Shown: positions 695 through 15,200 of the stretch, piece after piece
How positions within the stretch are numbered: position 1 is the first letter of the stretch
How the letters are laid out: each line of letters begins with the position of its first letter
IMG/VR virus record: IMGVR_UViG_3300031998_000049
DNA: 20,000 bases
Strand: one strand, 5' to 3'
Source: an uncultured virus (IMG/VR IMGVR_UViG_3300031998_000049)
Taxonomy: Duplodnaviria; Heunggongvirae; Uroviricota; Caudoviricetes
The notes under the pieces: generated by a model
Seen by the model: the letters and a program-made list of their open reading frames with translations, nothing else
Database searches by the model: none
What the model was told of the DNA's origin: nothing
Program-made: the position numbers and the translations under genes

Positions 695-712
695 TTTTTC
701 CAAGTGAAACTA

Positions 713-747: not shown

Positions 748-761
748 TTATGTTCCTTTAA

Positions 762-888
762 GTAGCGCGAAGGACGGACATAGTGCAATCCCGCCAATTT
801 GTGTCATACATCATATTTGGCTTGCGCCTCTTCGTCTTACGCGCTACCTCTTGAAAAAGAGAAGATGAAGAGGCGCAAGTGTTTTATT
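762..888 (+). promoter_or_regulatory. Structured leader with terminator-like hairpin and competing pairing upstream of the replication genes
   Basis: 18-bp stem 821-838/862-879 (one G-U) followed by GTTTTATT. Segment 762-776 is complementary to 833-847. Confidence 0.6.
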
Positions 889-898
889 ACCAAGACTA

Positions 899-1657: not shown

Positions 1658-3705
1658 TTGACGAAAAAACGATCCGATGTTGGTGGTCGCTGTTCAAGGC
1701 TGACAACCCGCTGACGGAAATACGAATCTTGGGGAATGGGAAGACATTCTCCGGATACTACACCGATGTTGAGGCGGTCCTTCGTGACATCCGCAGTTTC
1801 GACGGCTATGGAATCTATGCGACCATCAACGCGATCAAGGAATCCTGCTATGGACGGATGCAGCACGATTGCATCATCCAGAAGCCGAAAGAGACCACTT
1901 CGGACAACGACATCGACTACCGCACCACGCTCCTGATCGACATCGACCCCAAGCGCACGAGCGGCACGAATGCGAGCGACAGCGAGAAGGAGGCGGCGCA
2001 CAAGAAAGCGCTGGAGATTTACAAGTTCCTTGACGAGCAGGGATTCGAGAAGCCGGTGGTTGCCGACTCCGCAAACGGATACCATCTGCTCTACAAGGTC
2101 TTCCTCGCCAACTCGCCGGAGGTGAACGAGACGGTCAAGAAGTTCCTCCAGGCGCTCGATATGCTCTTCTCGGACAACGAGGACGGCGGCGCGATGGTGG
2201 ATACATCGGTCTTCAATGCCGCCCGAATCGCCAAACTGATCGGTACGACCTCAAGCAAGGGCGCCAACACACATGACAGGCCACAGCGGATTTCCAAGAT
2301 ACTCAAGATTCCAAGCGAGTACAAGGAAACGAACATCGCCTACATCCAGAAGGTCGCCGCGATGCTCCCGGAACCGGAGAGGCCCAGCCAGTACAACAAC
2401 TACAACACCGAGCGCTTCGACCTCGACGCTTTCATCCAGGAACACAACATCGAGGTGGTCAAGGTCGTCCGGTTCTCCGGAGGAACGAAATACATCCTCA
2501 AGGAGTGTCCGTTCAACAACAACCACAAGGCGCCGGATGCGGCCATCTTCGCGCTTGACAATGGGGCGTTCGCGTTCAAGTGCCTCCACGCTTCCTGCCA
2601 ACAATACCATTGGCGCGATTTTAGGCTGTTTTATGACCCTCAAGCATACGACCGGAGGGAATACGAGGCATTCGACCGGAAGCGCAAATATAACGCCCAA
2701 ATTCGCCAAGAAGACCTAAAGCCGGTGCCGGAGGACGATCGCGGTCACAAGTGGAAGACCGCATCGGAGTTCAAGTTCTTCGACCTCAAGGATGCCCAGG
2801 CTATCCCGTTCGGAATCCCGGCCATAGACCGGAAGACGATGGGGCAGATTCTCGGAGAGGTGACAGTCCTCTCCGGCGGATCGGGTAGCGGAAAGACGAC
2901 ATTTGTCAACCACCTCATCCTTACCGCAGTCCAAAGGAACTACCATGCGGCGCTCTGGTCGGGAGAAATGGCCGGAGGACGAATAGTTGCTTGGCTCGAC
3001 CAGATGGCCGCAGGGAAGAACAATGTAGAGAGCGTCCCAGGGACGGATGGTCTTTACTCGGTTCCGAAGAGAATCCGCGACAAGATCAACGATTGGCTCG
3101 GTGATAGGTTCCACATCTACGAGAACTCCTACGGAAACCGATGGAGCCAGCTCTGCGCAGACATTGAAGACTGCATCAAGCAGCACAATGTGAACCTCAT
3201 CGTCCTTGACAACAAGATGAGCCTTTCGCTCGACAACATCGTAGGCGACGCGAACGAGAAAGACCGAGAGTTCATCCTTGAACTGACGGACATCGCAAAG
3301 CGGACGAACACACATATCGTCCTCGTCGCGCATCCGAGAAAGGAAAACCTCACGCAGCTCATCCGCAAGGAGAGTATCGCCGGGTCGAGCGACATCACGA
3401 ACCTCGCGTTCAATGTCGTCCTCCTCCATCGCGTTGGCCGTGACTTCGAGAAGCGTGGCCGCGAGTTCTTCGGCCCTATCGCCGTCCAGGAACTCATGGA
3501 CTACTCGCTCGTGGTTGAGGTCGTCAAGGCGAGGACATCAGGCGTCCAGGACTTGCTCGTCGGTCTCTACTACGAGCAAGAAACCAGGCGGCTCAAGAAC
3601 GAGCAAGCCGAGAACATCGTCTACGGTTGGGACGAGCAACCCGTACAGGCAGAGTTTGAGGATATGCCGGATTTCACGAATGTTCCGTACTACGAAAATT
3701 TCTGA
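1654..3705 (+). CDS. Bifunctional AEP-like primase / zinc-binding domain / SF4 (DnaB/T7 gp4-like) helicase
   Basis: Primase motifs IDID and DSANGYH. Zinc-binding CPF..H...FKCLHASC. Walker A GGSGSGKTT, Walker B LIVLDN, and SF4 motifs VAHPRK and IAGSSDI. Confidence 0.85.
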   Translation: MIDEKTIRCWWSLFKADNPLTEIRILGNGKTFSGYYTDVEAVLRDIRSFDGYGIYATINAIKESCYGRMQHDCIIQKPKETTSDNDIDYRTTLLIDIDPKRTSGTNASDSEKEAAHKKALEIYKFLDEQGFEKPVVADSANGYHLLYKVFLANSPEVNETVKKFLQALDMLFSDNEDGGAMVDTSVFNAARIAKLIGTTSSKGANTHDRPQRISKILKIPSEYKETNIAYIQKVAAMLPEPERPSQYNNYNTERFDLDAFIQEHNIEVVKVVRFSGGTKYILKECPFNNNHKAPDAAIFALDNGAFAFKCLHASCQQYHWRDFRLFYDPQAYDRREYEAFDRKRKYNAQIRQEDLKPVPEDDRGHKWKTASEFKFFDLKDAQAIPFGIPAIDRKTMGQILGEVTVLSGGSGSGKTTFVNHLILTAVQRNYHAALWSGEMAGGRIVAWLDQMAAGKNNVESVPGTDGLYSVPKRIRDKINDWLGDRFHIYENSYGNRWSQLCADIEDCIKQHNVNLIVLDNKMSLSLDNIVGDANEKDREFILELTDIAKRTNTHIVLVAHPRKENLTQLIRKESIAGSSDITNLAFNVVLLHRVGRDFEKRGREFFGPIAVQELMDYSLVVEVVKARTSGVQDLLVGLYYEQETRRLKNEQAENIVYGWDEQPVQAEFEDMPDFTNVPYYENF

Positions 3706-4406
3706 TGCCTATGGACTGCAAGGTTTATGCTTACTACCGGACGGATCACAGCGTGGTGCTTGAGCCGGGTGAGCGGATCGTCCAAGACAAGTGGCCTGGG
3801 CGACTCGCCGAGATCATTTCCAACGGCGACGATGTATGGCAACTCCATCTCGACAACCCCGCTGATTTCAACACCATCCGTCGATGTTTCTATGACAAGA
3901 GATACTGGGCTGGGAGGAGCTGGAACGAAGAATACAACGAAACACAAAGAGATAACACCATGAGAAAACTTGACACCATCACCACCTGCCGCGATTTCAT
4001 GCGCGAGCGTTCTTCACTCATAGATAGCCTCAAGTCATACGCCAAGACTCTCCGCAAGGGAAAGAACGGATATATGTACCCGACGCTCGACAAACTTGCC
4101 GATGACTTGAAGCCGTTTGATCCTGCATACTGCGAGTGGACGAACCCTTTCGAAACACAGACGAACGACCGCCTCTTCATCCTTGAGTACAACGAGGAGA
4201 AAGGCATCACGCATTTCAATTACCTGGATGGCGGAGAGTTCCACAACGCTCTTGGGTCGAACGGATACTCCCCCATCTCACTACTTCCGGATGCTTTCCA
4301 GACCAACCAGGAGTTCCTTGACCTCATCACTGGTCTTGCCAGGAAGAACACGCCGATTGCAGACTTCACCTCTGCGGTCTATATGTGGATTCTCAAAAAC
4401 TCATAA
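3705..4406 (+). CDS. Hypothetical phage protein
   Basis: 233-aa ORF with TGATG coupling to the helicase stop. No motif recognised. Confidence 0.65.
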   Translation: MPMDCKVYAYYRTDHSVVLEPGERIVQDKWPGRLAEIISNGDDVWQLHLDNPADFNTIRRCFYDKRYWAGRSWNEEYNETQRDNTMRKLDTITTCRDFMRERSSLIDSLKSYAKTLRKGKNGYMYPTLDKLADDLKPFDPAYCEWTNPFETQTNDRLFILEYNEEKGITHFNYLDGGEFHNALGSNGYSPISLLPDAFQTNQEFLDLITGLARKNTPIADFTSAVYMWILKNS

Positions 4407-4408
4407 CC

Positions 4409-4696
4409 ATGACACCGAATACACGAACGCAGCAGCGACAGGTCTATGACCTGCTTGCATCCCCCAATCCTGACGGCCTGACCAGGATGCAGATTGCGGT
4501 CTGCCTGAACATCGAGCGGGCATCCGTTTGTCGCCGGGTTGCCGAACTCCGCGATGCCGGAGTCCTCTGGGTGATCCGCAAGGGAATCTGCCCGATTACC
4601 GGCGAGCGGGCCGAGTTCCTTACCACTTGCAAGGAGGTGGCGATGAACGGCACGCTTGAGAAGAAAGTTGAATTGACAGGAACATTGTTCGGATAG
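4409..4696 (+). CDS. Winged-HTH DNA-binding protein
   Basis: GLTRMQIAVCLNIERASVCRRVAELRDAG HTH pattern. ATG lies 2 nt after the upstream stop. Confidence 0.7.
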   Translation: MTPNTRTQQRQVYDLLASPNPDGLTRMQIAVCLNIERASVCRRVAELRDAGVLWVIRKGICPITGERAEFLTTCKEVAMNGTLEKKVELTGTLFG

Positions 4697-4699
4697 GAT

Positions 4700-5068
4700 A
4701 TGGAACTGACTGACGATCAAAAAAGAACGATTGATTGGGTAGAAAACATGCCAGATGAAGCGCTTCACAATATTGTTGGTAGGCATACTGGCAAATCAAC
4801 TCGTATTGTGGATGAACTGATCCAGGACTTCTTCAACAAAAAGCCCGGCACGAAGATCAGAATCATTGATCACTATCCGACAAAAAGAGCGGATGAGCAT
4901 GTCACGAGGAGGATGTTACGAAGACTGGAGGTAGAACACAATGTGACCGCCCGCGTGTTTAGGGACAAAGACGGTTATCTATACACGGTCAGGGAGTTCT
5001 TAATGCTTCGCGATATTGTTGATGCCGAGATCGAGCGAAGGAAACAACTTATAGTACAAGCCAAATGA
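4700..5068 (+). CDS. Hypothetical protein with Walker A-like motif
   Basis: 122 aa with GRHTGKST. Packed in the operon. Confidence 0.6.
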   Translation: MELTDDQKRTIDWVENMPDEALHNIVGRHTGKSTRIVDELIQDFFNKKPGTKIRIIDHYPTKRADEHVTRRMLRRLEVEHNVTARVFRDKDGYLYTVREFLMLRDIVDAEIERRKQLIVQAK

Positions 5069-5382
5069 TACCGAATTTAATACTACCCGAGCTCCCGTCT
5101 CCGCCGCAAGGGAGGTGGGAGTGTCGGCCCAAAGGGGAAGACCAAGCGTGGTCTGTCTGCGCCCCCGATGACCTCTATCGTAGAGACAAAGAGTATAGGC
5201 ATATTCCTCCGGCAACATCGGAGGTTCGAGCATGGGTACACAAGATGGTTGACTACATCGCTGACGCCTGCGAAGCTGGCACCAAGTGCATATTTGACGA
5301 GAGCCACGCTTTCCTCGTGTTCCAACGCGACGGCGAGCTGGTGGTCGGGTTTGCGTTACCGGAAAAGAAAAAGAAAGAATAG
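5065..5382 (+). CDS. Hypothetical phage protein
   Basis: 105 aa, ATGA overlap with the upstream gene. Confidence 0.55.
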   Translation: MIPNLILPELPSPPQGRWECRPKGEDQAWSVCAPDDLYRRDKEYRHIPPATSEVRAWVHKMVDYIADACEAGTKCIFDESHAFLVFQRDGELVVGFALPEKKKKE

Positions 5383-5384
5383 CC

Positions 5385-5708
5385 ATGCGCGAGATCAAGT
5401 TTAAGGGCAAGGCCAAATCGAATGGCCAATGGGTTTACGGCAACCTCTCGTACCGGGAGGCTGACAACGGATATTCCTGCGTTTACATCGAAGACCAGGG
5501 TTGGGACGGCGGTTTGACCGAGGTCGATCCCGAGAGCGTCGGCCAGTACACGGGGCTCAAGGACAAGAACGGGGTGGAGATTTACGAGGGGGACATCTTG
5601 ACCAATGTGGATGGTTATTCTTTCCGCGTCCCGTTTAATTGGGCGCTCAATTTCGCCGCTGGCACAGATAGCCGTATCACCGGCAACATTCACGACAAAA
5701 AAGAGTAG
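5385..5708 (+). CDS. YopX family phage protein
   Basis: MREIKFKGK...WVYG...VDPESVGQYTGLKDKNGVEIYEGDIL...GNIHD is the YopX signature. Confidence 0.9.
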   Translation: MREIKFKGKAKSNGQWVYGNLSYREADNGYSCVYIEDQGWDGGLTEVDPESVGQYTGLKDKNGVEIYEGDILTNVDGYSFRVPFNWALNFAAGTDSRITGNIHDKKE

Positions 5709-5712
5709 CGAT

Positions 5713-5901
5713 ATGAAAGCATACAGAGTAAAGGTGGTGGCCACGAAGACGATGGTTGTCACGGAGGAGATGTTGAGGGAGGAAGGATGTGAAGTAGAGA
5801 TCGACGAGTTCTGGGCTGGCCGCCACGCCGTTGGCGCACTCATCGAAGAACTTCGCAACAACCCGAATCGCGGTTCGGTAAAAGTGGAACTGATAAAGTA
5901 G
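5713..5901 (+). CDS. Hypothetical protein (62 aa)
   Basis: ATG 4 nt after the YopX stop. Fills the gap in the operon. Confidence 0.6.
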   Translation: MKAYRVKVVATKTMVVTEEMLREEGCEVEIDEFWAGRHAVGALIEELRNNPNRGSVKVELIK

Positions 5902-5907
5902 AAATCT

Positions 5908-6666
5908 ATGGACAGAAAAGAAGCAATAGAAGTGATCCGGTCGAATTGGCCGGAGGGCAGGGTGATGTTGAAGGGGGCCCTGCAAGTTCTCATCCCCGAG
6001 TTCCGGGAGAGCGAGGACGAGAAGAATTGGAAGGCCGTTTTGGAGTGTGTCAAGGATGACGCGCTCCGGGCCTGGCTCGAAAAGCAGAAAGAGCGGAAAC
6101 CGTTTGCTCATGAAAACGATTTCGTGAGCAAGCCTAAAGGTTATATTGAAAATGCGGCACATAATTACGCAATGAATTTCGGCGATAAAGAAAGTGAACT
6201 ATATATCGAGATTTTTGATGCGTATAAGGCTGGCGCTTATTATGCCGAATTGCGACAGAAGCCTGCGGAATGGAGCGAGGATATTATCCAAAAAGCCGTT
6301 AAAGAGGTTGGGCTAACTCAGCATCAAATAGCTTGGTTCAAAACCAATGTATTTCCGTCAAAGCAAGAGTGGAGCGAGGAGGACGAGAAAAAGATTGTTT
6401 TTTTAGAGCGACTGATAAGGTATAATTTTCCTGAAGGACAATACGGATGGGTAGATGGGAACAAGGGTGGATTCGTAACTAAACTGGAAGCAATATCCAT
6501 GCTCAAATCCCTCCGCCCTCAGCCGCAATGGAAGCCTACCGAGAGAATGGTCAATGCGCTGAAATGGGTCGTTAGTGAGTTCCACCCCGATTGCCCGGAA
6601 ACAATGGAGCAGTTGGAATATTTATACACCGAGTTGAAGTCCATGTATTATGGGCCGATCAAATAA
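5908..6666 (+). CDS. Modular phage protein with EWSEED-type repeats
   Basis: ESEDEK, QKPAEWSED, KQEWSEEDEK and LKSLRPQPQWKPT modules, typical of Bacteroidales phage accessory proteins. Confidence 0.7.
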   Translation: MDRKEAIEVIRSNWPEGRVMLKGALQVLIPEFRESEDEKNWKAVLECVKDDALRAWLEKQKERKPFAHENDFVSKPKGYIENAAHNYAMNFGDKESELYIEIFDAYKAGAYYAELRQKPAEWSEDIIQKAVKEVGLTQHQIAWFKTNVFPSKQEWSEEDEKKIVFLERLIRYNFPEGQYGWVDGNKGGFVTKLEAISMLKSLRPQPQWKPTERMVNALKWVVSEFHPDCPETMEQLEYLYTELKSMYYGPIK

Positions 6667-6672
6667 TAGCCT

Positions 6673-7002
6673 ATGACACCCGAAGAAATCAACAAGAAAG
6701 CATACGAGAAGTACCCTATCCTTACGCGAGGACACGGGATAGACTTGAATTATGGGAAGCGCGAAATGTATATCGAGTTTCTCCAGGAAATCTCTGCCCT
6801 CCCTACCATCAAAGGCTGGGTGGCGAGAGATGGAGATGGAACCTTGTATCTGTATATCCGCCCTCCATATCGTGATAAAAACTACGATTGGTGGCATCCA
6901 ATAGCGGGACGAGATAAGCTCGCTATTGATATATCCCTTTTCCCGGAGCTCCGATATGAGGACGAGCCCATCGAGGTAGAACTCCCGATAATCAGAAAGT
7001 AG
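6673..7002 (+). CDS. Hypothetical phage protein
   Basis: 109 aa with GWVARDGDGTLYLY and LFPELRYEDEPIEVEL motifs, as recalled from Bacteroidales phage proteins. Confidence 0.7.
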   Translation: MTPEEINKKAYEKYPILTRGHGIDLNYGKREMYIEFLQEISALPTIKGWVARDGDGTLYLYIRPPYRDKNYDWWHPIAGRDKLAIDISLFPELRYEDEPIEVELPIIRK

Positions 7003-7005
7003 CAT

Positions 7006-7112
7006 AGGGGCGCGTAAAAAGTAGAATAAGAGCAATATTGGAGCGGGCCCTGCCGTACTGCATACACCGCGATCCGTTGCGGTAACTCCGTAAAAGTATG
7101 CAACGCGCCTCT
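7006..7112 (+). ncRNA. Putative structured RNA 1
   Basis: Closing stem AGGGGCGCGT/ACGCGCCTCT, inner stem TGCATAC/GTATGCA, hairpin ACCGCGA-TCCG-TTGCGGT, followed by a T-run. Intergenic. Confidence 0.55.
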
Positions 7113-7164
7113 TTTATACGAACCTATAAAAATCGAAAGAAATCAACAAAAATTTATAGTTCCA

Positions 7165-7332
7165 ATGACTGCAAATGAACTCATACGCAAGCTCCAGGGT
7201 GAGGTTGCAAAGCTAACCTCCGGGGATATTCCTATCAAGATTGATGGCACCAGGATTCTCGGCGCAGAAGTGAAGCTCGACGAGGATGAACGCGGCCTTT
7301 TTATAGACATTCAACAGAAGATTTACTTCTAA
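7165..7332 (+). CDS. Hypothetical protein (55 aa)
   Basis: MTANELIRKLQGEVAKLTSGDIPIKIDG...IYF*, read manually (below the ORF-track cutoff). Confidence 0.6.
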   Translation: MTANELIRKLQGEVAKLTSGDIPIKIDGTRILGAEVKLDEDERGLFIDIQQKIYF

Positions 7333-7466
7333 TGAAAGCAAGATACCCCAGATGTATGCCCCGGTTCTACAAGGTGGGACTTTGGTGGCGGAACTTCAAG
7401 AGAGAATACCGGCGCAACAAGCGCAACGATGCGCTCTGCGCAAGATTGACAAGGATCGCGGTGTAA
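7332..7466 (+). CDS. Small basic protein (44 aa)
   Basis: TAATG coupling. MKARYPRCMPRFYKVGLWWRNFKREYRRNKRNDALCARLTRIAV*. The 3' end overlaps the tRNA-like element. Confidence 0.4.
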   Translation: MKARYPRCMPRFYKVGLWWRNFKREYRRNKRNDALCARLTRIAV

Positions 7467-7555
7467 GAGATGCAACGCCCCGGCCCATCGGGTTTCGTGG
7501 TTAAGGGTGGGACGCGGGGAGGTGCTGGCTCTGCGATGCAATCCAGCCGATCCTT
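7452..7555 (+). ncRNA. tRNA-shaped RNA with expanded anticodon arm and T-loop
   Basis: Acceptor stem AGGATCG/CGATCCT, D-like arm, CCCCG/CGGGG stem, AGGT variable loop, and GCTGG/CCAGC T-stem directly adjoining the acceptor strand. No 7-nt anticodon loop and no CCA. Confidence 0.65.
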
Positions 7556-7562
7556 TTGACAT

Positions 7563-7664
7563 AGGGGGCCGTAAGGAATGAGCCGCGAGGTTCACGCACT
7601 ACTACATTTCATTTCGGACAGAATAAAGCGTTAAACAAGTTTTCCCAAAGCCCTGCGGCTCCCT
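7563..7664 (+). ncRNA. Putative structured RNA 3
   Basis: Closing stem AGGGGGCCGTA/TGCGGCTCCCT and GNRA hairpin TGAGCC-GCGA-GGTTCA, followed by a T-run. Confidence 0.55.
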
Positions 7665-7680
7665 TTTAATTGAAAGCATT

Positions 7681-7833
7681 ATGGAAACAGCGAAAATCAT
7701 CTTTGCCATCGTGGTCGGCATCCTCTTTATCGCGTGGATAGCCATTGAGGTTGTCTTGTTGATAGCTATGGCGAAATCGGACGCGAAACCGAGCCTTGAT
7801 CCGAACGATGACATAACGGAAATTGACTTATGA
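7681..7833 (+). CDS. Small single-pass membrane protein (50 aa)
   Basis: METAKIIFAIVVGILFIAWIAIEVVLLIAMAK..., with ATGA overlap into the next gene. Confidence 0.6.
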   Translation: METAKIIFAIVVGILFIAWIAIEVVLLIAMAKSDAKPSLDPNDDITEIDL

Positions 7834-8345
7834 AACAGACACTACAAACCATCACAACCATCTGCGCCTGCCTTGTGTGCTTCATGTGCGGTTATCTGCT
7901 CGGCGCAACAAGACCGCAGGCCAAGCAAGAGGTGGAGGTCAAGCCCCGCTCGGCGGTGCAGATGCTCCGCAACCTCCATCGTGACGAACTGACCGAGTGG
8001 CAGATGCTCACGATGGCCATCTGTTACACCGAAAGCAAGTTCCACGACGAGGCGAAGGGCAAGGCCGGAGATTCGGGCCAGTTCCAATTCATCCCTGTCT
8101 ATGTAGCCGAAGTGAACCGGCTCTATGGGACAGACTACACTATCGACGATGCTTCCGACCTCGGCAAGAGCCTGGAGATGTTCAACAAGCTCCAGAACTA
8201 CTACAACCCCTCGCACGGGATCGAGGACGGCATCAAGTACCACAACAGAAGTCCTTACTATCGCAGGGCTGTCTTGGATAATCTTGAACTCATCCGGCGG
8301 TACGAGAGGACGAGAAAGGCGGTGATTAACTACAAAGCTAACTGA
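7830..8345 (+). CDS. Membrane-anchored SLT-like lytic transglycosylase
   Basis: N-terminal hydrophobic helix, catalytic Glu motif AICYTES and second motif GQFQF (GxxQ). Confidence 0.75.
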   Translation: MKQTLQTITTICACLVCFMCGYLLGATRPQAKQEVEVKPRSAVQMLRNLHRDELTEWQMLTMAICYTESKFHDEAKGKAGDSGQFQFIPVYVAEVNRLYGTDYTIDDASDLGKSLEMFNKLQNYYNPSHGIEDGIKYHNRSPYYRRAVLDNLELIRRYERTRKAVINYKAN

Positions 8346-8346
8346 T

Positions 8347-8502
8347 ATGAAGGTATTTGGATGCGAAATGCAAGGAGGTTATGCCGGAGGAATCGTGCTG
8401 GTGGCGGCGAACACGAAAGAGCAAGCCTTTGAGGTGTCCGGTCGCGGGACTTGGGGGAACAACCCCTGGGTATTCGTCTATGAATTTGAATTAGTCAAGT
8501 AG
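8347..8502 (+). CDS. 51-aa probable chimeric remnant
   Basis: MKVFGCEMQGGYAGGIVLVAANTKEQAFEV joined to SGRGTWGNNPWVFVYEFELVK. The second part resembles the C-terminus of ASCH-like phage proteins. Confidence 0.5.
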   Translation: MKVFGCEMQGGYAGGIVLVAANTKEQAFEVSGRGTWGNNPWVFVYEFELVK

Positions 8503-8505
8503 CCT

Positions 8506-8748
8506 ATGAAAGCCGGAAGAGACTATGCTTGGTATGTTTCCTATTGCTGGAGCTTCGTGTGGTATGACGCCGAGATCAGGAAATGGGTGGCAACAAGTGA
8601 TTCCGATAGCGGTAGATTCTGTTGTCGAAAGAAAGACATCAAGAAGGAAGTAAACAAACGCGTCACGGAAGAACTCGAAGGTTTAATCTACCACGACTTT
8701 GAGATTACGATTCTTGATAAGTACAGAACAACTCCTACCGAATTGTAG
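8506..8748 (+). CDS. Hypothetical protein
   Basis: 80 aa, operon packing. Confidence 0.6.
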   Translation: MKAGRDYAWYVSYCWSFVWYDAEIRKWVATSDSDSGRFCCRKKDIKKEVNKRVTEELEGLIYHDFEITILDKYRTTPTEL

Positions 8749-8750
8749 CC

Positions 8751-9038
8751 ATGCCGACGATGAACACGCAAGAAGCCATCAAGGTCTTGCAAGACCTCAA
8801 TAAGTTTCGGGACAACCCCACGGCCTTCCCGCCGCGATTCCCGGAGCCGCGACAATTCAAAGAAGCCGTCTCCGCGATTGCGGAGTATGTGCAGAACTCC
8901 ATCACCCTCACATGGGTGACTATCCGTGACCTCGCCGGGATCATCAGGGAGGTTGAGGACGAGTTTGAGACGAAAGTCCAGACGAACCCCGAACTCTGCG
9001 AGGAAGTGTTGAAACGATTTAACGAAAGAAGGAAATGA
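8751..9038 (+). CDS. Hypothetical protein
   Basis: 95 aa, operon packing. Confidence 0.6.
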   Translation: MPTMNTQEAIKVLQDLNKFRDNPTAFPPRFPEPRQFKEAVSAIAEYVQNSITLTWVTIRDLAGIIREVEDEFETKVQTNPELCEEVLKRFNERRK

Positions 9039-9199
9039 GACCTAATCGAGCAATGTGTTCTCAATGCGCGAGCTACAAGGGCTTCTGCCCTCTCTATGAG
9101 GGGGTCTGCCCCGTCTATATGCGCCGGGAAAGGACTACCCGGTGGATTGTCTGCGGCGTGGCCGCTATCATCGTAATCGTAATGTTTATCGTGCTATGA
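9035..9199 (+). CDS. Small Cys-rich membrane protein (54 aa)
   Basis: CxxC...C...C motif then a C-terminal hydrophobic helix. ATGA overlaps at both ends. Confidence 0.55.
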   Translation: MRPNRAMCSQCASYKGFCPLYEGVCPVYMRRERTTRWIVCGVAAIIVIVMFIVL

Positions 9200-9582
9200 A
9201 AGCAGAAGAATTGATGAAAGGGAACTGGGTGTTCTCGTCCAGATTGGGGCGCCCCGTTCAAATTGTTTCAGTTGGGAGTAGGGTGACCTACTACTATGGC
9301 GGCACTTTGCGCCAGGCGGAGTTGAAAGACATCGGCCCGATCCCTCTCTCCGACGAAATCTTGAAGAAGGTCAGTTCTTGTGTGGTACACCATCCCGGCA
9401 CTGGCGCGTCCGAGGAAGTCACCTACTACACCATCGAGCGGCTTGAAATCAAGCACAACACGGAAGATTGGCGGCACGAATACTTCGCTGTTGTTGGCCT
9501 TCCTTGCTATGAGTTGAAGTGGTTGCATCAGCTCCAGAACTTGATGCGCGGGTGCGGCATCGAGAAAGAAATCACCCTTTAA
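9196..9582 (+). CDS. Hypothetical phage protein
   Basis: MKAEELMKGNWV...PIPLSDEILKK...LHQLQNL, a motif set recalled from Bacteroidota phage proteins. Confidence 0.7.
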   Translation: MKAEELMKGNWVFSSRLGRPVQIVSVGSRVTYYYGGTLRQAELKDIGPIPLSDEILKKVSSCVVHHPGTGASEEVTYYTIERLEIKHNTEDWRHEYFAVVGLPCYELKWLHQLQNLMRGCGIEKEITL

Positions 9583-9592
9583 TCGAAGCAAT

Positions 9593-9817
9593 ATGGGCGA
9601 GATTTATTACAAGTCAGAAGACGGCAAGTTAACAGCAACTGTAGTACATGACCCTTTCGAGATGACTGCAGGTATGACCGAGAATGCCTTTAGGACGATC
9701 CGTGAAATCCTCCTTGCTGGGGACTATTACATTGACGAACTTGACCTCGTGGAGATCGTTATGGAGTACGAGCGCAAGACCGGGGCGCATATCCCGGATC
9801 ATTGGTTAAGAGGTTAA
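9593..9817 (+). CDS. Hypothetical protein (repeat-bounded cassette)
   Basis: 74 aa, flanked by AATCGAAGYAATATG. Confidence 0.6.
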   Translation: MGEIYYKSEDGKLTATVVHDPFEMTAGMTENAFRTIREILLAGDYYIDELDLVEIVMEYERKTGAHIPDHWLRG

Positions 9818-9828
9818 ATCGAAGTAAT

Positions 9829-10476
9829 ATGAGCAATCAAGAACAAGTAATCGAGGTCGCGGGGAAGAAGGTGGTGTTGAGGTATGCGGAGGATGGTTGT
9901 CCGAAGTGTATGTTTTACCCAGACTGCCCCAATGAGGCGTTTATGGTGTGCGCGAAATTCGATAAGCGCGGGCTGGATATGCACGAATCGGCCTACTTCG
10001 TCGAAGCGGAGCAGCCGAAGAAAACCAATGCGCTTTTCGAGGAATGCGTAAAGAACTGCGACCCGAAGGTACGGGCCGAGGTGCGGAGCAACATTGACAA
10101 GATTATTGCCGAAGAAACCCATTCCCTCCGGGAGTGGGCACAGATACTCGCAACCAACCCAGAACTCCGCGCCGAGTTCGACAAGCTCTGTCCTCCCCAA
10201 CCGATTCAAGGGAGCATCGCTCCGCAGGCAGACCTGGAGGCGGAGATTGAGCGGTGGTGGAACGATAGGTATGCCAAGCTGAAAAAGGACTACAAGTTCG
10301 ATTCAACGAGCGGCCACTACATCGACAACGAGGGTATCATCGACCTCGCCCGCCACTTCGCGGAGTGGGAGAGGGGCCGGATAGAAAAAGCCATTCGTCT
10401 CGCCTGGGGGAAGATTTCAATGAACCCCTTTGATGTCGATAGCGCGTTTGAAGAACTATTAAGTAAAGTTAAGTAA
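9829..10476 (+). CDS. Hypothetical modular phage protein
   Basis: ATG at 9829. Cys motif CxxC...C...C, and a DLEAEIERW...ARHFAEW module. Confidence 0.65.
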   Translation: MSNQEQVIEVAGKKVVLRYAEDGCPKCMFYPDCPNEAFMVCAKFDKRGLDMHESAYFVEAEQPKKTNALFEECVKNCDPKVRAEVRSNIDKIIAEETHSLREWAQILATNPELRAEFDKLCPPQPIQGSIAPQADLEAEIERWWNDRYAKLKKDYKFDSTSGHYIDNEGIIDLARHFAEWERGRIEKAIRLAWGKISMNPFDVDSAFEELLSKVK

Positions 10477-10496
10477 AGTTAAGTAAAGTTAAGTAA
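10459..10496. repeat. 10-bp tandem repeat (TTAAGTAAAG) x3.8
   Basis: Read directly. Spans the stop of the upstream gene and ends 1 nt before the next ATG. Confidence 0.9.
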
Positions 10497-10497
10497 G

Positions 10498-10680
10498 ATG
10501 AACACGATTTGTGGTAAAGACTATCTGTGCAAGAAATCGTATAAGGCCGGGAATTGCTCTTATACAAAGGGCCACACCTACCATTGTATGAGAGACGGCT
10601 ACTTGAACGATGACAACAATGTCAGCTGGTCTTGCACGGGAAGTTGGTGCGATGAAGCACTTAAAGAAGTAGAGATATGA
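10498..10680 (+). CDS. Hypothetical Cys-rich protein (60 aa)
   Basis: ORF track, ATGA overlap with the next gene. Confidence 0.55.
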   Translation: MNTICGKDYLCKKSYKAGNCSYTKGHTYHCMRDGYLNDDNNVSWSCTGSWCDEALKEVEI

Positions 10681-10859
10681 TAATTGCACAAAGAACAATG
10701 TCTTATCAGATTGGTGAATATGATTTTGATGTAGTTGCAGAAACAAAGGTATTTGAGGATTCTGCTACGGTAGCTGATATTAGGAAGTGGTATGATGAAC
10801 TGAACACACAATACCATCACTATGCAAGCCCAGAAGTTAGACTGCAATTCGAAAAATGA
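10677..10859 (+). CDS. Hypothetical protein (repeat-bounded cassette)
   Basis: 60 aa, visibly AT-richer than its neighbours, flanked by TAGAGATATGATA. Confidence 0.6.
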   Translation: MIIAQRTMSYQIGEYDFDVVAETKVFEDSATVADIRKWYDELNTQYHHYASPEVRLQFEK

Positions 10860-10866
10860 TAGAGAT

Positions 10867-11235
10867 ATGATAGTAGAAGTAATCAAGGGTGTTGAACACT
10901 CGATAGAACTGAACTTCGGTGAATCCTCCGTGTGCATCACGCCCGACGAGGCCCAGAAGCTCATTGGCCAGTTGCGGGCCGTCCTCCCCGCCCCCTCCGA
11001 TGTAGAAGAAGCGGCAAGGGGGTACGCGACAGCCCACATAAAGAGAGCGGAGTGGGTGCCGATGGACGTGGCTTTTCTCGATGGAGCCAAGTGGAAGGAG
11101 GGCCAGCTGATGAAGGACGCGGTGGAGGTGACGGTATATTATAACTTCGAGAACAGGTTGGCGGTCACAGCCCAACTTCCCGAAGATAGCCCCCACAAGT
11201 TCTGCGACAAAGTTAAACTCATAATCTTGAAATAG
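10867..11235 (+). CDS. Hypothetical phage protein
   Basis: ATG at 10867. EEAARGYA...AFLDGAKW...MKDAVE module. Confidence 0.65.
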   Translation: MIVEVIKGVEHSIELNFGESSVCITPDEAQKLIGQLRAVLPAPSDVEEAARGYATAHIKRAEWVPMDVAFLDGAKWKEGQLMKDAVEVTVYYNFENRLAVTAQLPEDSPHKFCDKVKLIILK

Positions 11236-11236
11236 T

Positions 11237-11464
11237 ATGTGGAAAGACGAACCGATAGCAAAGGATCGGCCCAAGATGGAATTTCTCTATGGCGTCTGGT
11301 CCGCGATTCAATCAATCGTAATTGATTGGGACGAGCCTACCATAGCAAGGGAAATCGCTCGTGCCAATCACATCAACAAGAAGTTGGCTGTGGAGTTACA
11401 ACAAGGGACTGAATACAAGGCTCCGGGAATGGCCGCTTTCATCCGTGAACATATTGACGAATAG
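11237..11464 (+). CDS. Hypothetical protein
   Basis: 75 aa, flanked by AATAGTATG. Confidence 0.6.
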   Translation: MWKDEPIAKDRPKMEFLYGVWSAIQSIVIDWDEPTIAREIARANHINKKLAVELQQGTEYKAPGMAAFIREHIDE

Positions 11465-11465
11465 T

Positions 11466-11558
11466 ATGATCGCACTCTTTGAAGCTATCGTCTCTTGGGT
11501 CGCAAGATGCACCAGGAGATACAACGCAAGATGTTGGATAACGAATGAGTGGTATTAA
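11466..11558 (+). CDS. Mini-protein (30 aa, repeat-bounded cassette)
   Basis: MIALFEAIVSWVARCTRRYNARCWITNEWY*, flanked by ACGAATAGTATGA. Confidence 0.4.
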   Translation: MIALFEAIVSWVARCTRRYNARCWITNEWY

Positions 11559-11569
11559 ACACGAATAGT

Positions 11570-11857
11570 ATGACCAGGAAAGAGTACAACGAGAAACAAG
11601 ACAAGTACAATGCCGCCGTCAAGGAAATCCGGCAGAAGCAGATAGACCTCGACAAAGCCTATGCGGATGATCTCGCAAAGCTGAATGGGTTGGAGGTCGG
11701 GGAATTTATCCGGGATTACCACGGAGTTCTGTATGCCTTCTATCGGGTCGAGGTGAACGCGAGTTCTCACTTCGTGTGGGGGCGGAAAATCAGGATGGAC
11801 GGGACACCGAGCTGCAATTCCCTAATCGTCTGGGGCTACAAACTCAAAGAAGAATAG
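11570..11857 (+). CDS. Hypothetical protein
   Basis: 95 aa from ATG 11570, coiled-coil-like N-terminus. Confidence 0.6.
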   Translation: MTRKEYNEKQDKYNAAVKEIRQKQIDLDKAYADDLAKLNGLEVGEFIRDYHGVLYAFYRVEVNASSHFVWGRKIRMDGTPSCNSLIVWGYKLKEE

Positions 11858-11868
11858 GAGGACAAGAA

Positions 11869-12138
11869 ATGACTATCCGAAGCCTTAATGACAAACGAGA
11901 CAGGTTGAGTATCTTCCGTCAGCCAGACGGAGATATACAAGTGACCATCATTCACGATGGAGAAACATACCGAGAGAACCACTTGCTTGGAGTTCGCGTC
12001 GGCGGCTGTGGCTCCGGCCACGATATTCCCCGACGCATTTGGTCTTTACTGAACGAGCTTGCGACCGAGTTCGAGAAGTTCGAGGACTGCAAGTATGAAC
12101 GGGATGCTTGCTACAAAGAAATGGAGGACGAGAAATGA
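11869..12138 (+). CDS. Hypothetical protein (repeat-bounded cassette)
   Basis: 89 aa from ATG 11869, flanked by GGAGGACRAGAAATGA. Confidence 0.6.
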   Translation: MTIRSLNDKRDRLSIFRQPDGDIQVTIIHDGETYRENHLLGVRVGGCGSGHDIPRRIWSLLNELATEFEKFEDCKYERDACYKEMEDEK

Positions 12139-12305
12139 AGAACGGCATCATTATAAACGGAACCGAGTACGAGGCCACTACCGCAGACAACCCTCTTAAA
12201 AGGTGCGTCAAATGTGCCTTGCGTTTGGAGTGCTTCAATGCGGGCAGAATATGCTCGATATTCAGTAACGGAATGGACATTTATTTCAAAGTGAAAGAAC
12301 AATGA
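12135..12305 (+). CDS. Small Cys4 protein (56 aa)
   Basis: MKNGIIING...CVKCALRLEC...C...YFK, ATGA overlaps at both ends. Confidence 0.6.
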   Translation: MKNGIIINGTEYEATTADNPLKRCVKCALRLECFNAGRICSIFSNGMDIYFKVKEQ

Positions 12306-12604
12306 GCAAACTGAACTACAAGACCAGCAAGGACTACAAGCGGCTCAAGGAGCTGCTGGATAAGGGGTACGAGGTGGTGTGCTTCACTACCTATGACTTC
12401 CGGTGGATGGAATGGGAAGAACACGAGCCTATGTGGACAACGGATGTCTGCACCGCCAGAAAGGATGAAAACGGGCGATATTACTTCGCCGTCCGTGGTT
12501 GTGAGTTCACATCCTATTGGCCGGGGATGCACCGCTACGCATCTTTCGAGGAAGCCTGCGCGAGCGAACGCATCGAGTTCATCGAGCCTAACGGGGAGGA
12601 ATAG
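12302..12604 (+). CDS. Hypothetical phage protein
   Basis: 100 aa with YKTSKDYKRLKELLDKG motif. Confidence 0.65.
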   Translation: MSKLNYKTSKDYKRLKELLDKGYEVVCFTTYDFRWMEWEEHEPMWTTDVCTARKDENGRYYFAVRGCEFTSYWPGMHRYASFEEACASERIEFIEPNGEE

Positions 12605-12606
12605 CT

Positions 12607-12888
12607 ATGGCAAACAAAAGAAAACCGGTCAAAGACTACCCCGTCGGGCAAGCCATCGCGGAAGCCCTTGAAAAGAAGGGCATAACGCAGTCCGAACTCG
12701 CAGCAAGGCTTAATATGAGCCCAGGGAATCTATCGGCAATACTGCACACTGGACGCGAAGTAACCTCGCGTATGCTCGTTAGGATTGCTATCGCTACCGG
12801 CCTCGATGCCTTCGAGCTGGGCCGGATGCAGTCCGACTTCGAGATAATGAAAATCGTCAATTCTATCATCGAACATAACGGGGAATAG
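12607..12888 (+). CDS. XRE/Cro-family HTH regulator
   Basis: LEKKGITQSELAARLNMSPGNLSAILHTGR HTH_3 pattern. Confidence 0.85.
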   Translation: MANKRKPVKDYPVGQAIAEALEKKGITQSELAARLNMSPGNLSAILHTGREVTSRMLVRIAIATGLDAFELGRMQSDFEIMKIVNSIIEHNGE

Positions 12889-12891
12889 AGT

Positions 12892-13071
12892 ATGAATCAA
12901 GCACAAAAACTCGCGGCAGAAAAATTCCCGCACGACAAGTTCCCTGGAGAAAAGGGGGACTCCCTCCGCTTCGCTTTCGTCGTCGGCTACGTCGAGGCAT
13001 TAAAATACGCCTCGGATGTTATCATAGACCAAATACAAGTAATAGCTAATGACATTATAACAGAAAAATAG
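12892..13071 (+). CDS. Hypothetical protein (59 aa, repeat-bounded cassette)
   Basis: MNQAQKLAAEKFP...IITEK*, read manually, flanked by AATAGAGTATGAA. Confidence 0.55.
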   Translation: MNQAQKLAAEKFPHDKFPGEKGDSLRFAFVVGYVEALKYASDVIIDQIQVIANDIITEK

Positions 13072-13074
13072 AGT

Positions 13075-13425
13075 ATGAAACGCATTCCAGATTCCTACAA
13101 AGTGGGAGGACAGACAATGCAAGTCCTCCAGGTCGAAAGATGCGAGGATAACGCCCTTGGACAATGCTACGTCTCTGCCGGTTGGGTTAAAATCGCGGAC
13201 AAGATCAACACCTATGACACCCAATCCGAAACGAGCAAGGTAAACACCTTCTATCACGAACTTGTTCATTCTATCTTGAAAACGATGTGCGAGGACAAGT
13301 TGAATGAAAACGAGAAATTCGTCTGCTGCTTCGCGTCATTTCTCTGCGAAGCTATGTCGGAGGCTCGATTCCCTGGGGGCGATAGCGAGTTGGAATTATT
13401 AATGACAAAGGAACGCAGAGTATGA
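13075..13425 (+). CDS. HExxH zinc metallopeptidase-like protein (ImmA/IrrE-like fold)
   Basis: NTFYHELVH plus a downstream Glu (NEKFV). Confidence 0.7.
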   Translation: MKRIPDSYKVGGQTMQVLQVERCEDNALGQCYVSAGWVKIADKINTYDTQSETSKVNTFYHELVHSILKTMCEDKLNENEKFVCCFASFLCEAMSEARFPGGDSELELLMTKERRV

Positions 13426-13679
13426 TTACAGAGAAAGACCTACTCAAATGGGGGTTCGAGAATACGGGAATAAGCGGACGCTGCTACGAGATTATCATTG
13501 AAAAGCACCCGGCCCTTTTCGACCTCGTGTTTTTCGACTTTAGAGAAAACAGGCTCGTCGCTTGCTACAACCGCAGCCAAGTGGAACTCTTTGGCGTGAC
13601 CACCAAGCGCAAGGCCGACCAAGCGCTTCATCTTTTGGGGCTTCCGCCCATCGACAAACTCAAAGAGATCAAGAAATGA
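13422..13679 (+). CDS. Hypothetical protein
   Basis: 85 aa, ATGA overlaps. Confidence 0.6.
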   Translation: MITEKDLLKWGFENTGISGRCYEIIIEKHPALFDLVFFDFRENRLVACYNRSQVELFGVTTKRKADQALHLLGLPPIDKLKEIKK

Positions 13680-14092
13680 AACAAACTATTATCGGAACGG
13701 CCGGAGCGCCGGACTATGTACTTATCGGTAACTTCAAGGGCGCGCCGGTCAACTTCGCGCTCCCTTTCAACGTAGAGCCAGGGACGAGAGTCGCCATCAC
13801 CTTCGAGACGATTGACCAGACGACGGGGGGTATGGATGATGCGGAACGCCGTCCGAACACGTGGGCTAAACGCCTCGAAAAGATGAAGGCCGAACAAGCG
13901 GAAGCACCGAAGCCAAAGCCGAAGCGACCCCAGACCTCATACTTCTACATCGGCAGGAAAAGCGCGAAGCCGACGGTCGTGTTCGAGGGCGTCCGCCCTT
14001 GCTGGCCCGTCCGAGCTCTCCAGGCGCTCGTCGGAATCCATTGGGCCGAAGAAGGAAAAATCTTTAGACAAATACAAACACACAAGAAATGA
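13676..14092 (+). CDS. Hypothetical protein (repeat-bounded cassette)
   Basis: 138 aa from ATG 13676, flanked by CAAGAAATGAA. Confidence 0.6.
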   Translation: MKQTIIGTAGAPDYVLIGNFKGAPVNFALPFNVEPGTRVAITFETIDQTTGGMDDAERRPNTWAKRLEKMKAEQAEAPKPKPKRPQTSYFYIGRKSAKPTVVFEGVRPCWPVRALQALVGIHWAEEGKIFRQIQTHKK

Positions 14093-14316
14093 ACACAGGA
14101 AAAGCAATCAAGACGATCCGGGAAGAGAACGGCCTGTCGCGTCCGGATCTGGCGAAGAGGGTGGGAATCACGCCTGCTTCGATCTGGAAAATCGAGGCCG
14201 GTAAAACACAGGCCAAAAACGAGACCATAGAGAGCATTTGCTTCGCGTTAAGGGTACCGCTGGCAAGATTCTACACCCTTGCGCTTGAGCCCCGCGATTT
14301 CGGCCTTATTGATTAA
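14089..14316 (+). CDS. XRE-family HTH regulator
   Basis: IREENGLSRPDLAKRVGITPASIWKIEAGK HTH_3 pattern. Confidence 0.88.
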   Translation: MNTGKAIKTIREENGLSRPDLAKRVGITPASIWKIEAGKTQAKNETIESICFALRVPLARFYTLALEPRDFGLID

Positions 14317-14321
14317 AAAAG

Positions 14322-14361
14322 AATCCCCGGCAGGGTAACCGCAAGAAACCTACCGGGGATT
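14322..14361. terminator. Probable bidirectional intrinsic terminator
   Basis: Stem AATCCCCGG.AGG/CCT.CCGGGGATT, A-run upstream and T-rich downstream, located between convergent genes. Confidence 0.75.
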
Positions 14362-14390
14362 TATAGAGCAACCAACTTGCCGGTACCGCT

Positions 14391-14792
14391 CTATTTATTG
14401 CAATGCGGGCACGAAAGCCTGCAGACTATGTCACTGACCGAACTTGCTATGTCTCCGCACAGGTATGCCATCCTCTCCGATAGCGGGTCAATTCCGTTCT
14501 CTTCAGAGATGTGCTGTGCTATGTGCACTATTTCGTGAACTATCGTGTTAAGCATCTCCGGGCCGCTGGTGGTCCCGCTTGTCGCGAATACGGTACGCCT
14601 GAGCGAGGGCTCGCTGAACGTGAAGCCCTCGTTCAGTCTACCAGAATAAACATTCTCCGACACATCGTCTATAATAGAATCGGGAGCCTTGGCCCAGAGC
14701 AGGGCGTCACGGATACTCTCCATATCGTGCCTGTCGAAGGAGAATAGGAACAAGATCGTCCATCCTGGTATGTGCACCTTTCGCGAGATCAT
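14391..14792 (-). CDS. HExxH metallopeptidase-like protein with C-terminal CxxxCxxC
   Basis: NTIVHEIVH...SERMAYLCG, ending CRLSCPHC. Confidence 0.7.
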   Translation of the reverse strand: MISRKVHIPGWTILFLFSFDRHDMESIRDALLWAKAPDSIIDDVSENVYSGRLNEGFTFSEPSLRRTVFATSGTTSGPEMLNTIVHEIVHIAQHISEENGIDPLSERMAYLCGDIASSVSDIVCRLSCPHCNK

Positions 14793-14795
14793 GTT

Positions 14796-15200
14796 CTAAA
14801 GCATATCGTCCCAAATAACGGGGATTCCGAGCGCCATCGTCTTCGCGTAGAACTCGTCAAACGCCCTTGTCTGCGATCCATCCGGATCGTCGAGGTAGTC
14901 TTTTACGAACTTGGCCAGGTGCGCCTCGTCCGTAATGGATGAACCGAAATAGTCCGCGGTGGCCATGCACCACACATACGCGCCGTCGTATCCCTTATCG
15001 TTCTTGAGTGTCACGTTGTTCGTCCGCATCTTTTCATCGAACGCGCTTTTCTCAACCGGCCGCACCTTGTCCCCAGTCCTCGTCTCCATCATTTTTACGG
15101 CCCACTCATAGAGGGGCTTGCTGAAGTGGCGCCCGTTGTAGGACAGGTATTCACGAAGCCCTCTGGGCATAGGTTCGTAATCGTCAATCCGTTCTGCCAT
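14796..15200 (-). CDS. Conserved hypothetical helical phage protein
   Basis: YLSYNGRHFSK...ADYFGSSI...YLDDPDG, recalled as a Bacteroidales phage family. Confidence 0.75.
   Translation of the reverse strand: MAERIDDYEPMPRGLREYLSYNGRHFSKPLYEWAVKMMETRTGDKVRPVEKSAFDEKMRTNNVTLKNDKGYDGAYVWCMATADYFGSSITDEAHLAKFVKDYLDDPDGSQTRAFDEFYAKTMALGIPVIWDDML

Follow-up and report, generated by a model that had tools for sequence, protein, structure and literature searches.

The window analysed here, a 20,000-nt stretch of the uncultured virus IMGVR_UViG_3300031998_000049, carries 35 closely packed genes on the + strand (g1-g35, 899-14316), followed by a hairpin (14322-14361) and then by a converging block of - strand genes. 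The system under consideration is the distal series of small genes, g18-g35, whose stop/start junctions carry short direct repeats that match between neighbouring junctions and are termed linkers in the following. We read g18-g35 as the distal part of one long + strand operon, lying downstream of the replication genes and consisting mostly of small accessory orphans, with the hairpin probably serving as the terminator of that operon. Only two of its 18 proteins (g30 and g35, both with a helix-turn-helix, HTH) have a Pfam family, the remaining 16 having none. For the region treated in a first-pass annotation of this DNA, an automatic gene caller gave the same genes with the exception of the 30-aa g25.

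That annotation had described nine repeat pairs, and all nine are found in place, each at a stop/start junction of the + strand array: 9581/9817 (14/15 positions identical, 18/21 when extended), 10670/10860 (13/13), 11231/11460 (9/9), 11457/11561 (13/13), 11857/12123 (15/16), 12579/12866 (17/19), 12884/13067 (13/13), 13070/13417 (9/9) and 13670/14083 (11/11). Three related IMG/VR records were used for comparison: G001, the nearest (67,621 bp, rated complete), which is 97% identical over window positions 1-6025 and shows patchy likeness over 8913-14058; G002, a complete record containing locus L013, with a mosaic array and a g37 homolog 99% identical to that of the window; and G003, the record of loci L155, L070 and L071, with a helicase 62% identical to the window's. 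Further comparisons come from sequencing runs (X1, X3, X4 and X6) in the form of single short Logan contigs aligned at 85% likeness, X1 being possibly the source sample itself. The features of the array are:

9196..14316, + strand: small-gene array g18-g35, 18 genes of 30-215 aa with gaps of -4..+21 nt
9581..9595, + strand: linker A, left copy (AATCGAAGCAATATG), junction g18/g19; X3 and X4 contigs diverge at 9584
9593..9817, + strand: cassette g19, 74 aa, flanked left and right by linker A in both the window and G001; 88% amino acid identity to G001
9817..9831, + strand: linker A, right copy (AATCGAAGTAATATG), junction g19/g20; G001 homology ends at 9832
10670..10682, + strand: linker B, left copy (TAGAGATATGATA), junction g21/g22
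10677..10859, + strand: cassette g22, 60 aa, GC 0.36 and GC3 0.26 versus 0.44-0.54 and 0.54-0.70 in its neighbours
10860..10872, + strand: linker B, right copy, junction g22/g23
11231..11239, + strand: linker C1 copy (AATAGTATG), junction g23/g24
11457..11469, + strand: linker C1 copy (ACGAATAGTATGA), junction g24/g25
11561..11573, + strand: linker C1 copy (ACGAATAGTATGA), junction g25/g26
11857..11872, + strand: linker D, left copy (GGAGGACAAGAAATGA), junction g26/g27; L013 homology begins here (11856)
11869..12138, + strand: cassette g27, 89 aa, common to L013 (91% at the nucleotide level) between unrelated neighbours
12123..12138, + strand: linker D, right copy (GGAGGACGAGAAATGA), junction g27/g28; loose contig ends at 12115 (X3) and 12139 (X6)
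12579..12597, + strand: tail linker, left copy, in the last codons of g29 and within a 33-44-nt island 93-100% identical to G001 and L013
12866..12884, + strand: tail linker, right copy, in the final codons of g30, which encodes an HTH protein and is unrelated to g29; matches the left copy at 17/19 positions
12884..12896, + strand: linker C2, left copy (AATAGAGTATGAA), junction g30/g31; X4 contigs have the same linker and then other genes
12892..13071, + strand: cassette g31, 59 aa, missing from one X4 contig
13067..13079, + strand: linker C2, right copy, junction g31/g32
13417..13425, + strand: C2-like linker copy (AGAGTATGA), junction g32/g33; opens a 46-nt island 98% identical to G001 and L013
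13670..13680, + strand: linker D' copy (CAAGAAATGAA), junction g33/g34
14083..14093, + strand: linker D' copy (CAAGAAATGAA), junction g34/g35
6667..6680, + strand: linker E (TAGCCTATGACACC), a single copy between g9 and g10, outside the range of the first-pass annotation
14322..14361, no strand: hairpin with 13-bp arms, directly after the last array gene and between the converging + and - blocks

The junction repeats fall into about five linker families, and the same families recur in the three related phage records:

Family A: AATCGAAGYAATATG
Family B: TAGAGATATGA
Family C: AATAG(AG)TATGA, in two separate runs, g24-26 and g31-33
Family D: GGAGGACRAGAAATGA and a short form, in two separate runs, with RAGAAATGA at g27-28 and g34-35
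Family E: TAGCCTATGA(CACC)

It had been claimed that the repeat largely differs from cassette to cassette while matching across each gene. The match between neighbours stands; the distinctness of the repeats was overstated, as about five families are shared across relatives and C and D each occur in two runs. A search with seven linker motifs returned 16 matches in the window, all of them on the + strand, none on the - strand, and all positioned at gene junctions; in G001 the motifs occur eight times inside its array versus twice in the other 58 kb. Since other window genes have none of these motifs, and those of G001 almost none, the motifs are not the general start signal of the phage. Some linkers run 20-30 nt into the last codons of the upstream gene, and window g21 and the g20 homolog of G001 have their last codons in common; judging from these sequences, a newcomer gene can apparently inherit a linker-encoded tail. 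The ends of g29 and g33 (12301-12367, 12572-12604, 13417-13462 and 13593-13697) form islands of 30-100 nt that are 87-100% identical to G001 and L013, with middles that are unalignable as DNA (45-53% amino acid identity). These islands adjoin a slot whose content differs in all three genomes.

That the likeness is a property of neighbouring junctions, as the first-pass annotation had supposed, is borne out by permutation of the junction order (20,000 permutations; windows of -20..+6/+8; the score being the mean longest shared run). Neighbouring junctions of g18-g35 score 8.06 nt, compared with 5.69 (sd 0.39) under permutation (z 6.1; p 5e-5, the lowest value attainable with this number of permutations), and junctions at distance 2 have a mean of 5.62 nt. 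Exact shared runs of at least 13 nt are present in 3/34 adjacent versus 0/561 non-adjacent pairs, and runs of at least 9 nt in 7/34 versus 17/561 (Fisher p 1.8e-4). The effect is retained across all 35 + strand genes (z 6.0) and is absent from both the 18 upstream genes by themselves (g1-g18, 899-9582; z -0.5) and the 11 - strand genes (z 0.4). Shifting the compared window gives z 5.8 for -20..-1 and z 2.6 for -40..-12, with no signal at -60..-32 (z -0.2), at +9..+37 (z 0.2) or in mid-gene control windows of g18-g35 (z 0.2). The junction likeness is real and limited to about -40..+8 around the start codon. Among relatives, the effect is seen in G003 (p 2e-4; 6.5e-4 without its duplicate), L177 (p 0.002), L013 (p 0.015) and L173 (p 0.033); mid-gene controls in relatives range from z -1.9 to 2.1, the highest value belonging to L155, which holds the perfect tandem duplication described below.

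Single genes are gained, lost, replaced or duplicated at the junction repeats in related genomes, as had been foreseen from the repeats, with indels or replacements at linkers in five slots (A, B, C2, D and E). At slot A, an extra gene follows linker A (9832) in G001 and in an X4 contig. At slot B, the likeness between the window and G001 covers, on the left, the linker and the 27 nt that end the upstream gene and, on the right, the linker and the first ~150 nt of g23; between the two linker copies lies g22 (60 aa) in the window versus an unrelated 112-aa gene in G001, and the GC3 of g22 is 0.26 versus 0.54 and 0.70 in its neighbours. At slot D, the window and L013 have g27 in common (91% identity), with homology that sets in at the first base of the linker, while the flanking genes are unrelated in both directions; L013 has three D linkers in succession, and thus one cassette more, and an X3 contig matches 11566-11873 and 12118-12361, the position of g27 being taken by 154 other letters. 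Linker-to-linker deletion does not cleanly account for an in-frame difference of 57 nt by which the window and L013 differ at the end of g27.

At slot C2, an X4 contig (record 19) joins the end of g30 (to 12873), followed by 13 other letters, to 13067: here g31 is gone and one linker copy is kept, the contig being 99% identical to the window over 13067-13320 (g32). A second X4 contig has linker C2 and then a different gene, and an X6 contig contains 13067-13438 alone, in another context. At slot E, L013 encodes a 77-aa gene between two identical 14-nt copies, whereas in the window and in G001 the homologous genes g9 and g10 are separated by a single copy; by this comparison the window's linker E is the unoccupied form of the slot filled in L013. 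One repeat copy is thus left at both the g31 and the slot E empty sites. The joints 12602>13417/13419 in X1 and X4 contigs were also considered as an empty site spanning g29-g33 and were rejected, the intervening sequence being undefined and the joints fitting an L013-like relative with a 62-aa gene.

A further product is found in G003: a 149-bp tandem duplication, 100% identical, with the arrangement linker-gene-linker-gene-linker and the 18-nt D linker at all three borders, within an array that has six exact D linker copies. This is the product expected from unequal exchange between two linker copies flanking a gene. Further, one and the same short boundary sequence can stand, across related genomes, before genes that have no relation to each other. 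Linker D is found ahead of window genes g27 and g28, ahead of three L013 genes and at six G003 junctions; linker B ahead of window genes g22 and g23 and, in G001, of the g23 homolog and another gene; and linker C2 ahead of window genes g31 and g32 and of other genes both in G001 and in the X4 contigs.

Together with the tandem duplication, the adjacency statistics and the breakpoints and indels that relatives show at linkers lead to the proposal, which we regard as probable, that short-homology recombination at the stop/RBS/start linkers shuffles single-gene cassettes with their frames intact. The linkers would serve in two capacities: as translation re-start signals of the operon, and as short homology tracts for recombination, both in cis and between co-infecting relatives, whether phages or prophages. 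A crossover between two copies of the same linker would insert, delete, duplicate or replace one gene, or a few, while both neighbouring reading frames, their coupling and the operon would be kept intact. The crossover zone spans stop, spacer and start and hence both frames survive, in keeping with the earlier suggestion that recombination at initiation junctions preserves translational coupling. Every insertion would leave the same linker flanking the newcomer on both sides, which would account for the observations that only immediate neighbours match and that linker types come in runs. The duplication bordered by linkers, the one-copy empty sites and the homology starting at a linker edge all fit recombination at linkers as read from the sequences. 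Which way each event went, and whether the donor was a circle or took part in linear unequal exchange, can be given only as likelihoods: small circles had been invoked earlier, and the same products are accounted for by unequal exchange among genomes in linear or concatemeric form.

Catalysis would probably be by an Erf-type single-strand annealing protein of the phage itself, together with its exonuclease and SSB. No integrase, recombinase or transposase family was recovered among the 46 open reading frames (ORFs) of the window in PHROGs comparisons, in agreement with the first-pass annotation, which had advised a search for an annealase elsewhere in the genome. Such a module is encoded by G001 on its - strand at 9060-11275 (L214 60-2275), comprising SSB, a RecE-like/PD-(D/E)XK-type exonuclease and an Erf-like annealase (E 1e-25); in the orientation of the window it lies directly upstream of the homolog of the window's first gene. 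A match to the Erf family is present in G001 and G003, and G004 and G005 have no Erf, RecT or AAA_24 match. In the parts of De Paepe et al. 2014 (PMC3945230) that deal with them, Erf/Exo systems recombine short, diverged homologies far better than RecA. A tie between the linkers and one particular annealase is suggestive only. G001 additionally encodes two tyrosine integrases at ~44.8-47.5 kb, with its array at ~62.6-67.6 kb and continuing at 1-2.4 kb, i.e. ~15 kb or more away.

Several observations weigh against shuffling at linkers or narrow its reach. With respect to the enzyme, G002, in which linker runs are present, has no Erf, RecT or AAA_24 match, so that the named enzyme is not required or has been replaced there; and the recombinase of the window phage, represented by 20 kb, is only presumed from G001. 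With respect to the adjacency effect, the G001 array alone falls short of significance (p 0.067 with automatic calls, 0.097 with hand-corrected starts), and p<0.05 was obtained in 3/18 helicase-anchored and 1/5 g37-anchored loci tested (3/21 helicase-anchored loci being too short or having too few genes, and 9/14 g37-anchored ones having too few genes). The effect is accordingly not general; the phenomenon belongs to this lineage and this part of the operon, not to all relatives. With respect to breakpoints, the expectation that they coincide with the repeats was upheld in part: of the 31 BLAST segment ends obtained with G001 and L013, nine are located at -16..+5 relative to a start codon, positions that make up 7.3% of the region (binomial p 2.8e-4), whereas 22 lie elsewhere, several of them well inside genes, and these figures come from two genomes that are not mutually independent and from BLAST ends that are fuzzy. 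The empty sites and replacements drawn from the runs are single short Logan contigs at 85% likeness, and at the g31 empty site the left side amounts to 48 letters (a count made by way of the record coordinates), and the linker is preceded by 13 letters that do not match. Finally, selection alone places surviving mosaic borders at gene junctions.

The last point is central to the best-surviving alternative, namely that the linkers are only translation signals, shared through joint inheritance or the same tuning of expression, with selection setting the borders and recombination being illegitimate and blind to the repeats. Every repeat does include a start codon and most an upstream stop, linker D has GGAGG seven bases before the ATG, and linker E is kept even though the flanking proteins are just 34-45% identical, which suggests function; the absence of the adjacency effect in most relatives and the many breakpoints within genes would also be accommodated. 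However, genes with the same linker are not co-inherited, in that g27, g22, g31 and g32 each appear or vanish alone in relatives, and the indels have the same 11-18 nt at both ends with one copy where the gene is absent, an outcome that blind end-joining would not lead one to expect. The perfect linker-bordered duplication in G003, and the confinement of the motifs (none at other window genes, two in the other 58 kb of G001), likewise speak against this alternative. Moreover, by our own reading of the 13 extra letters, the upstream gene in the g31-less X4 contig reads through linker C2 in another frame, which indicates that the linker is not kept for coding. We consider the translation-only account unlikely.

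Still less probable, and rejected here, is an origin of the matching junctions by tandem gene duplication, in which neighbours descend from copies of one gene and have kept similar ends although the gene bodies diverged or were overwritten. The recent tandem duplication in G003, the last codons common to g29 and g30, and an unrelated phage locus (L043) where neighbours with a shared junction run look similar by eye would be in line with it. Yet an all-versus-all BLASTP of the window's proteins (E 1e-3) returned two matches, neither between neighbours, which leaves room for very old paralogy; g30 is an HTH protein and g29 is not; the likeness is confined to the stretch from ~40 nt before to 8 nt after the start codon; and the GC3 of g22 is ~0.3-0.4 off that of its neighbours. 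An assembly artefact, i.e. a chimeric contig in which co-occurring strains were joined at shared sequence, with repeats arising from the mis-joins, is hardly credible: several strains do coexist in the same runs, X1 Logan contigs break at conserved islands (e.g. 12340-12355 and 12575-12599), and the 33-105-nt islands shared with relatives could mislead an assembler, but the repeats, at 9-19 nt, are below the word sizes generally used by metagenome assemblers, six of the nine pairs lie whole within single difference-free X1 contigs (records 3, 4 and 8; not independent if X1 is the source sample), and the same architecture is present in three separately assembled records (G001, G002 and G003). 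A transposable element with target-site duplication was rejected, as there is no transposase among the 46 ORFs and no inverted repeat at the cassette ends, and the repeats vary from 9 to 19 nt in length.

Linker-to-linker shuffling might be taken one step further, to an integrase-free form of cassette capture: the runs of matching junctions would be its footprints, and promoterless genes would leave as mini-circles with one linker and re-enter, by annealase-driven exchange, at whichever copy of that linker the operon of a related phage offers, duplicating the linker in the manner of a target-site duplication, with the linkers being selected for both mobility and translation. We put this forward as a tentative extension that is more doubtful than not. 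If true, it would offer temperate gut phages a general route for trading orphan genes with their operons unbroken. The genes of gut phages are mostly small orphans with a fast and poorly understood turnover, for which this locus offers a concrete, testable rule, namely that genes move singly at 9-19-nt stop/start linkers and every product stays translatable; natural examples of indel, replacement and duplication are available at the same linkers. Should the rule be general, it would explain mosaic borders that fall exactly at start codons, provide markers for accessory-gene slots in metagenomic phages and suggest safe insertion points for the engineering of such phages.

As for the wider setting, the stretch is present in sequencing runs labelled as bovine and goat gut metagenomes, and the phage is a temperate, siphovirus-like one of the cattle gut; G001 encodes a portal, a terminase, a tape-measure protein and the two tyrosine integrases. 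The helicase is 45% identical to Butyricimonas contigs from metagenome-assembled genomes (MAGs) and 32% identical to Bacteroidales MAGs, which is too distant for a host to be named. PHROGs comparisons name g1 as a DnaD-like loader, g2 as a primase/helicase, g30 and g35 as XRE-type HTH proteins and a - strand gene as an endolysin, with no match for most of the small genes. Promoter-like sites number nine in 6900-14800 versus 6.9 (sd 2.6) in shuffles, and none of the five on the + strand (11888, 12274 and 13812 inside 9196-14316, the others before it) coincides with a linker copy; terminator-like sites number five versus 8.1 (sd 2.5), none of them at junctions. The only inverted repeat in 9400-14400 is the hairpin at 14322-14361, the junctions and cassette ends being devoid of hairpins. 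The + strand array has just two sizeable non-coding gaps, 7002-7165 (162 nt) and 7466-7830 (363 nt), into which the promoter-like sites at 7133-7160 and 7670-7697 fall; these may mark the start of the transcript carrying the cassette array.

Some individual genes show features of their own. g32 (13075-13425), which matched only a PHROG of unknown function, contains a HELVH stretch that by eye resembles the HExxH metalloprotease motif, and it sits two genes after the XRE-type HTH gene g30 (12607-12888), a combination that we take to be reminiscent of regulator pairs of the ImmR/ImmA type. The gap between g20 and g21 is filled, from the g20 stop onwards, by four head-to-tail copies of TTAAGTAAAG (10459-10496); X3 and X6 contigs are 20 nt shorter at this repeat, and its copy number thus differs among samples. 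At 10369-10650, 281 nt of the window stand against 58 nt of G001 within the 3' portion of the g20 homolog, a difference that gives a truncated g20 and a new 60-aa ORF, g21, reading into the old g20 tail with the last codons kept. This mosaic border lies inside a gene and not at a junction.

A scan with a 26-nt stretch of the g33 start recovered the two known relatives only, and the comparative set is accordingly small; g37 recovered 35 mostly short metagenome loci, and g20 gave one weak, unrelated match among viral contigs. In blastn searches, 9000-14500 had no match among 50,697 GenBank phage records, and 9000-14400 against all collected loci gave, besides G001 and L013, only two small matches (L015 and L182). 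A scan with the 16-nt D linker returned 117 stretches; among the best 80 of the 117, the multi-copy contigs L043 and L070/L071 were examined, and single matches are likely due to chance. In L043 (2438-4396), an unrelated viral contig, five consecutive junctions have ~18 nt in common (GCGCCGCGCTTGGGGAGG...) before ATGA-coupled starts; the ends of neighbouring proteins look alike by eye, and this array may consist of tandem paralogs. In the reverse complement of L071 (G003), the genes at ~4561-4875 and ~6846-7118 both contain MKLTKEDYMRLPKERL..., so that a cassette, or part of one, is present twice at non-adjacent places ~2 kb apart in that array.

With respect to known systems, integrons combine an integrase, IntI, with an attI site and arrays of attC-bordered cassettes. 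The locus resembles them in being a one-direction array of promoterless single-gene cassettes that are bordered by repeats and vary in content among relatives. Unlike in an integron, however, there are no attC hairpins (the gaps are -4..+21 nt and the sole inverted repeat is at the end of the array) and no integrase in the window, the two of G001 lying ~15 kb or more from its array. The locus thus lacks the defining features of an integron, attC and IntI, and belongs instead with PeSL-type and linker-mediated modular shuffling (see below). The first-pass annotation had spoken of an integron-like array without att sites: the lack of att-like hairpins is confirmed, and the likeness to integrons is one of analogy only. 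Morons of lambdoid and other temperate phages are single accessory genes within a phage operon, and the cassettes are comparable to them as single accessory genes that lie between operon genes and differ among relatives. As summarised in PMC2839356, morons carry their own promoter and terminator and need no conserved flanks. The genes described here, on the other hand, have flanking repeats and no private promoter or terminator.

The modular theory of phage evolution invokes linker or boundary sequences, and relaxed recombination offers a related precedent. The relevant passages of De Paepe et al. 2014 (PMC3945230) describe how Rad52-like annealases mediate exchange between genomes, by relaxed homologous recombination at stretches that are conserved. 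As there, short conserved sequences are found here at gene borders among related temperate phages with mosaic genomes. The present case differs from the work so described in that direct repeats flank single genes inside one genome; those passages contain neither the likeness of adjacent junctions nor the one-copy empty sites nor a duplication bordered by linkers. Narrow word searches of open-access text did not return the exact arrangement, which may have been published elsewhere.

Among published systems, the nearest are the promoter-early stem-loop (PeSL) cassettes of T4-type phages. In the portions of Arbiol et al. 2010 (PMC2839356) devoted to them, PeSL repeats flank orphan genes in a hyper-variable region, border indels and replacements and are left as one copy at empty sites; no dedicated recombinase is named, general recombination of the phage being invoked, and the authors themselves draw the comparison with integrons. 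Each element is ~100 bp and combines a strong sigma-70-type promoter with a terminator stem-loop, making every cassette its own transcription unit, and mini-circles were demonstrated by inverse PCR (PMC2839356). The parallel lies in short elements that flank orphan genes, border indels between relatives and persist as one copy when the gene is absent. Judged against that description, the elements considered here are stop/spacer/start junctions of 9-19 nt (up to ~30) within one operon, they lack a promoter or a stem-loop terminator, they belong to several families arranged in runs, and they are found in a temperate siphovirus-like phage rather than in a T4-type myovirus; and whereas the PeSL circles were shown experimentally, the present cassettes are known from assembled sequence. 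The locus thereby extends the PeSL idea from T4-type lytic phages with ~100-bp regulatory elements to very short translational junctions in an operon.

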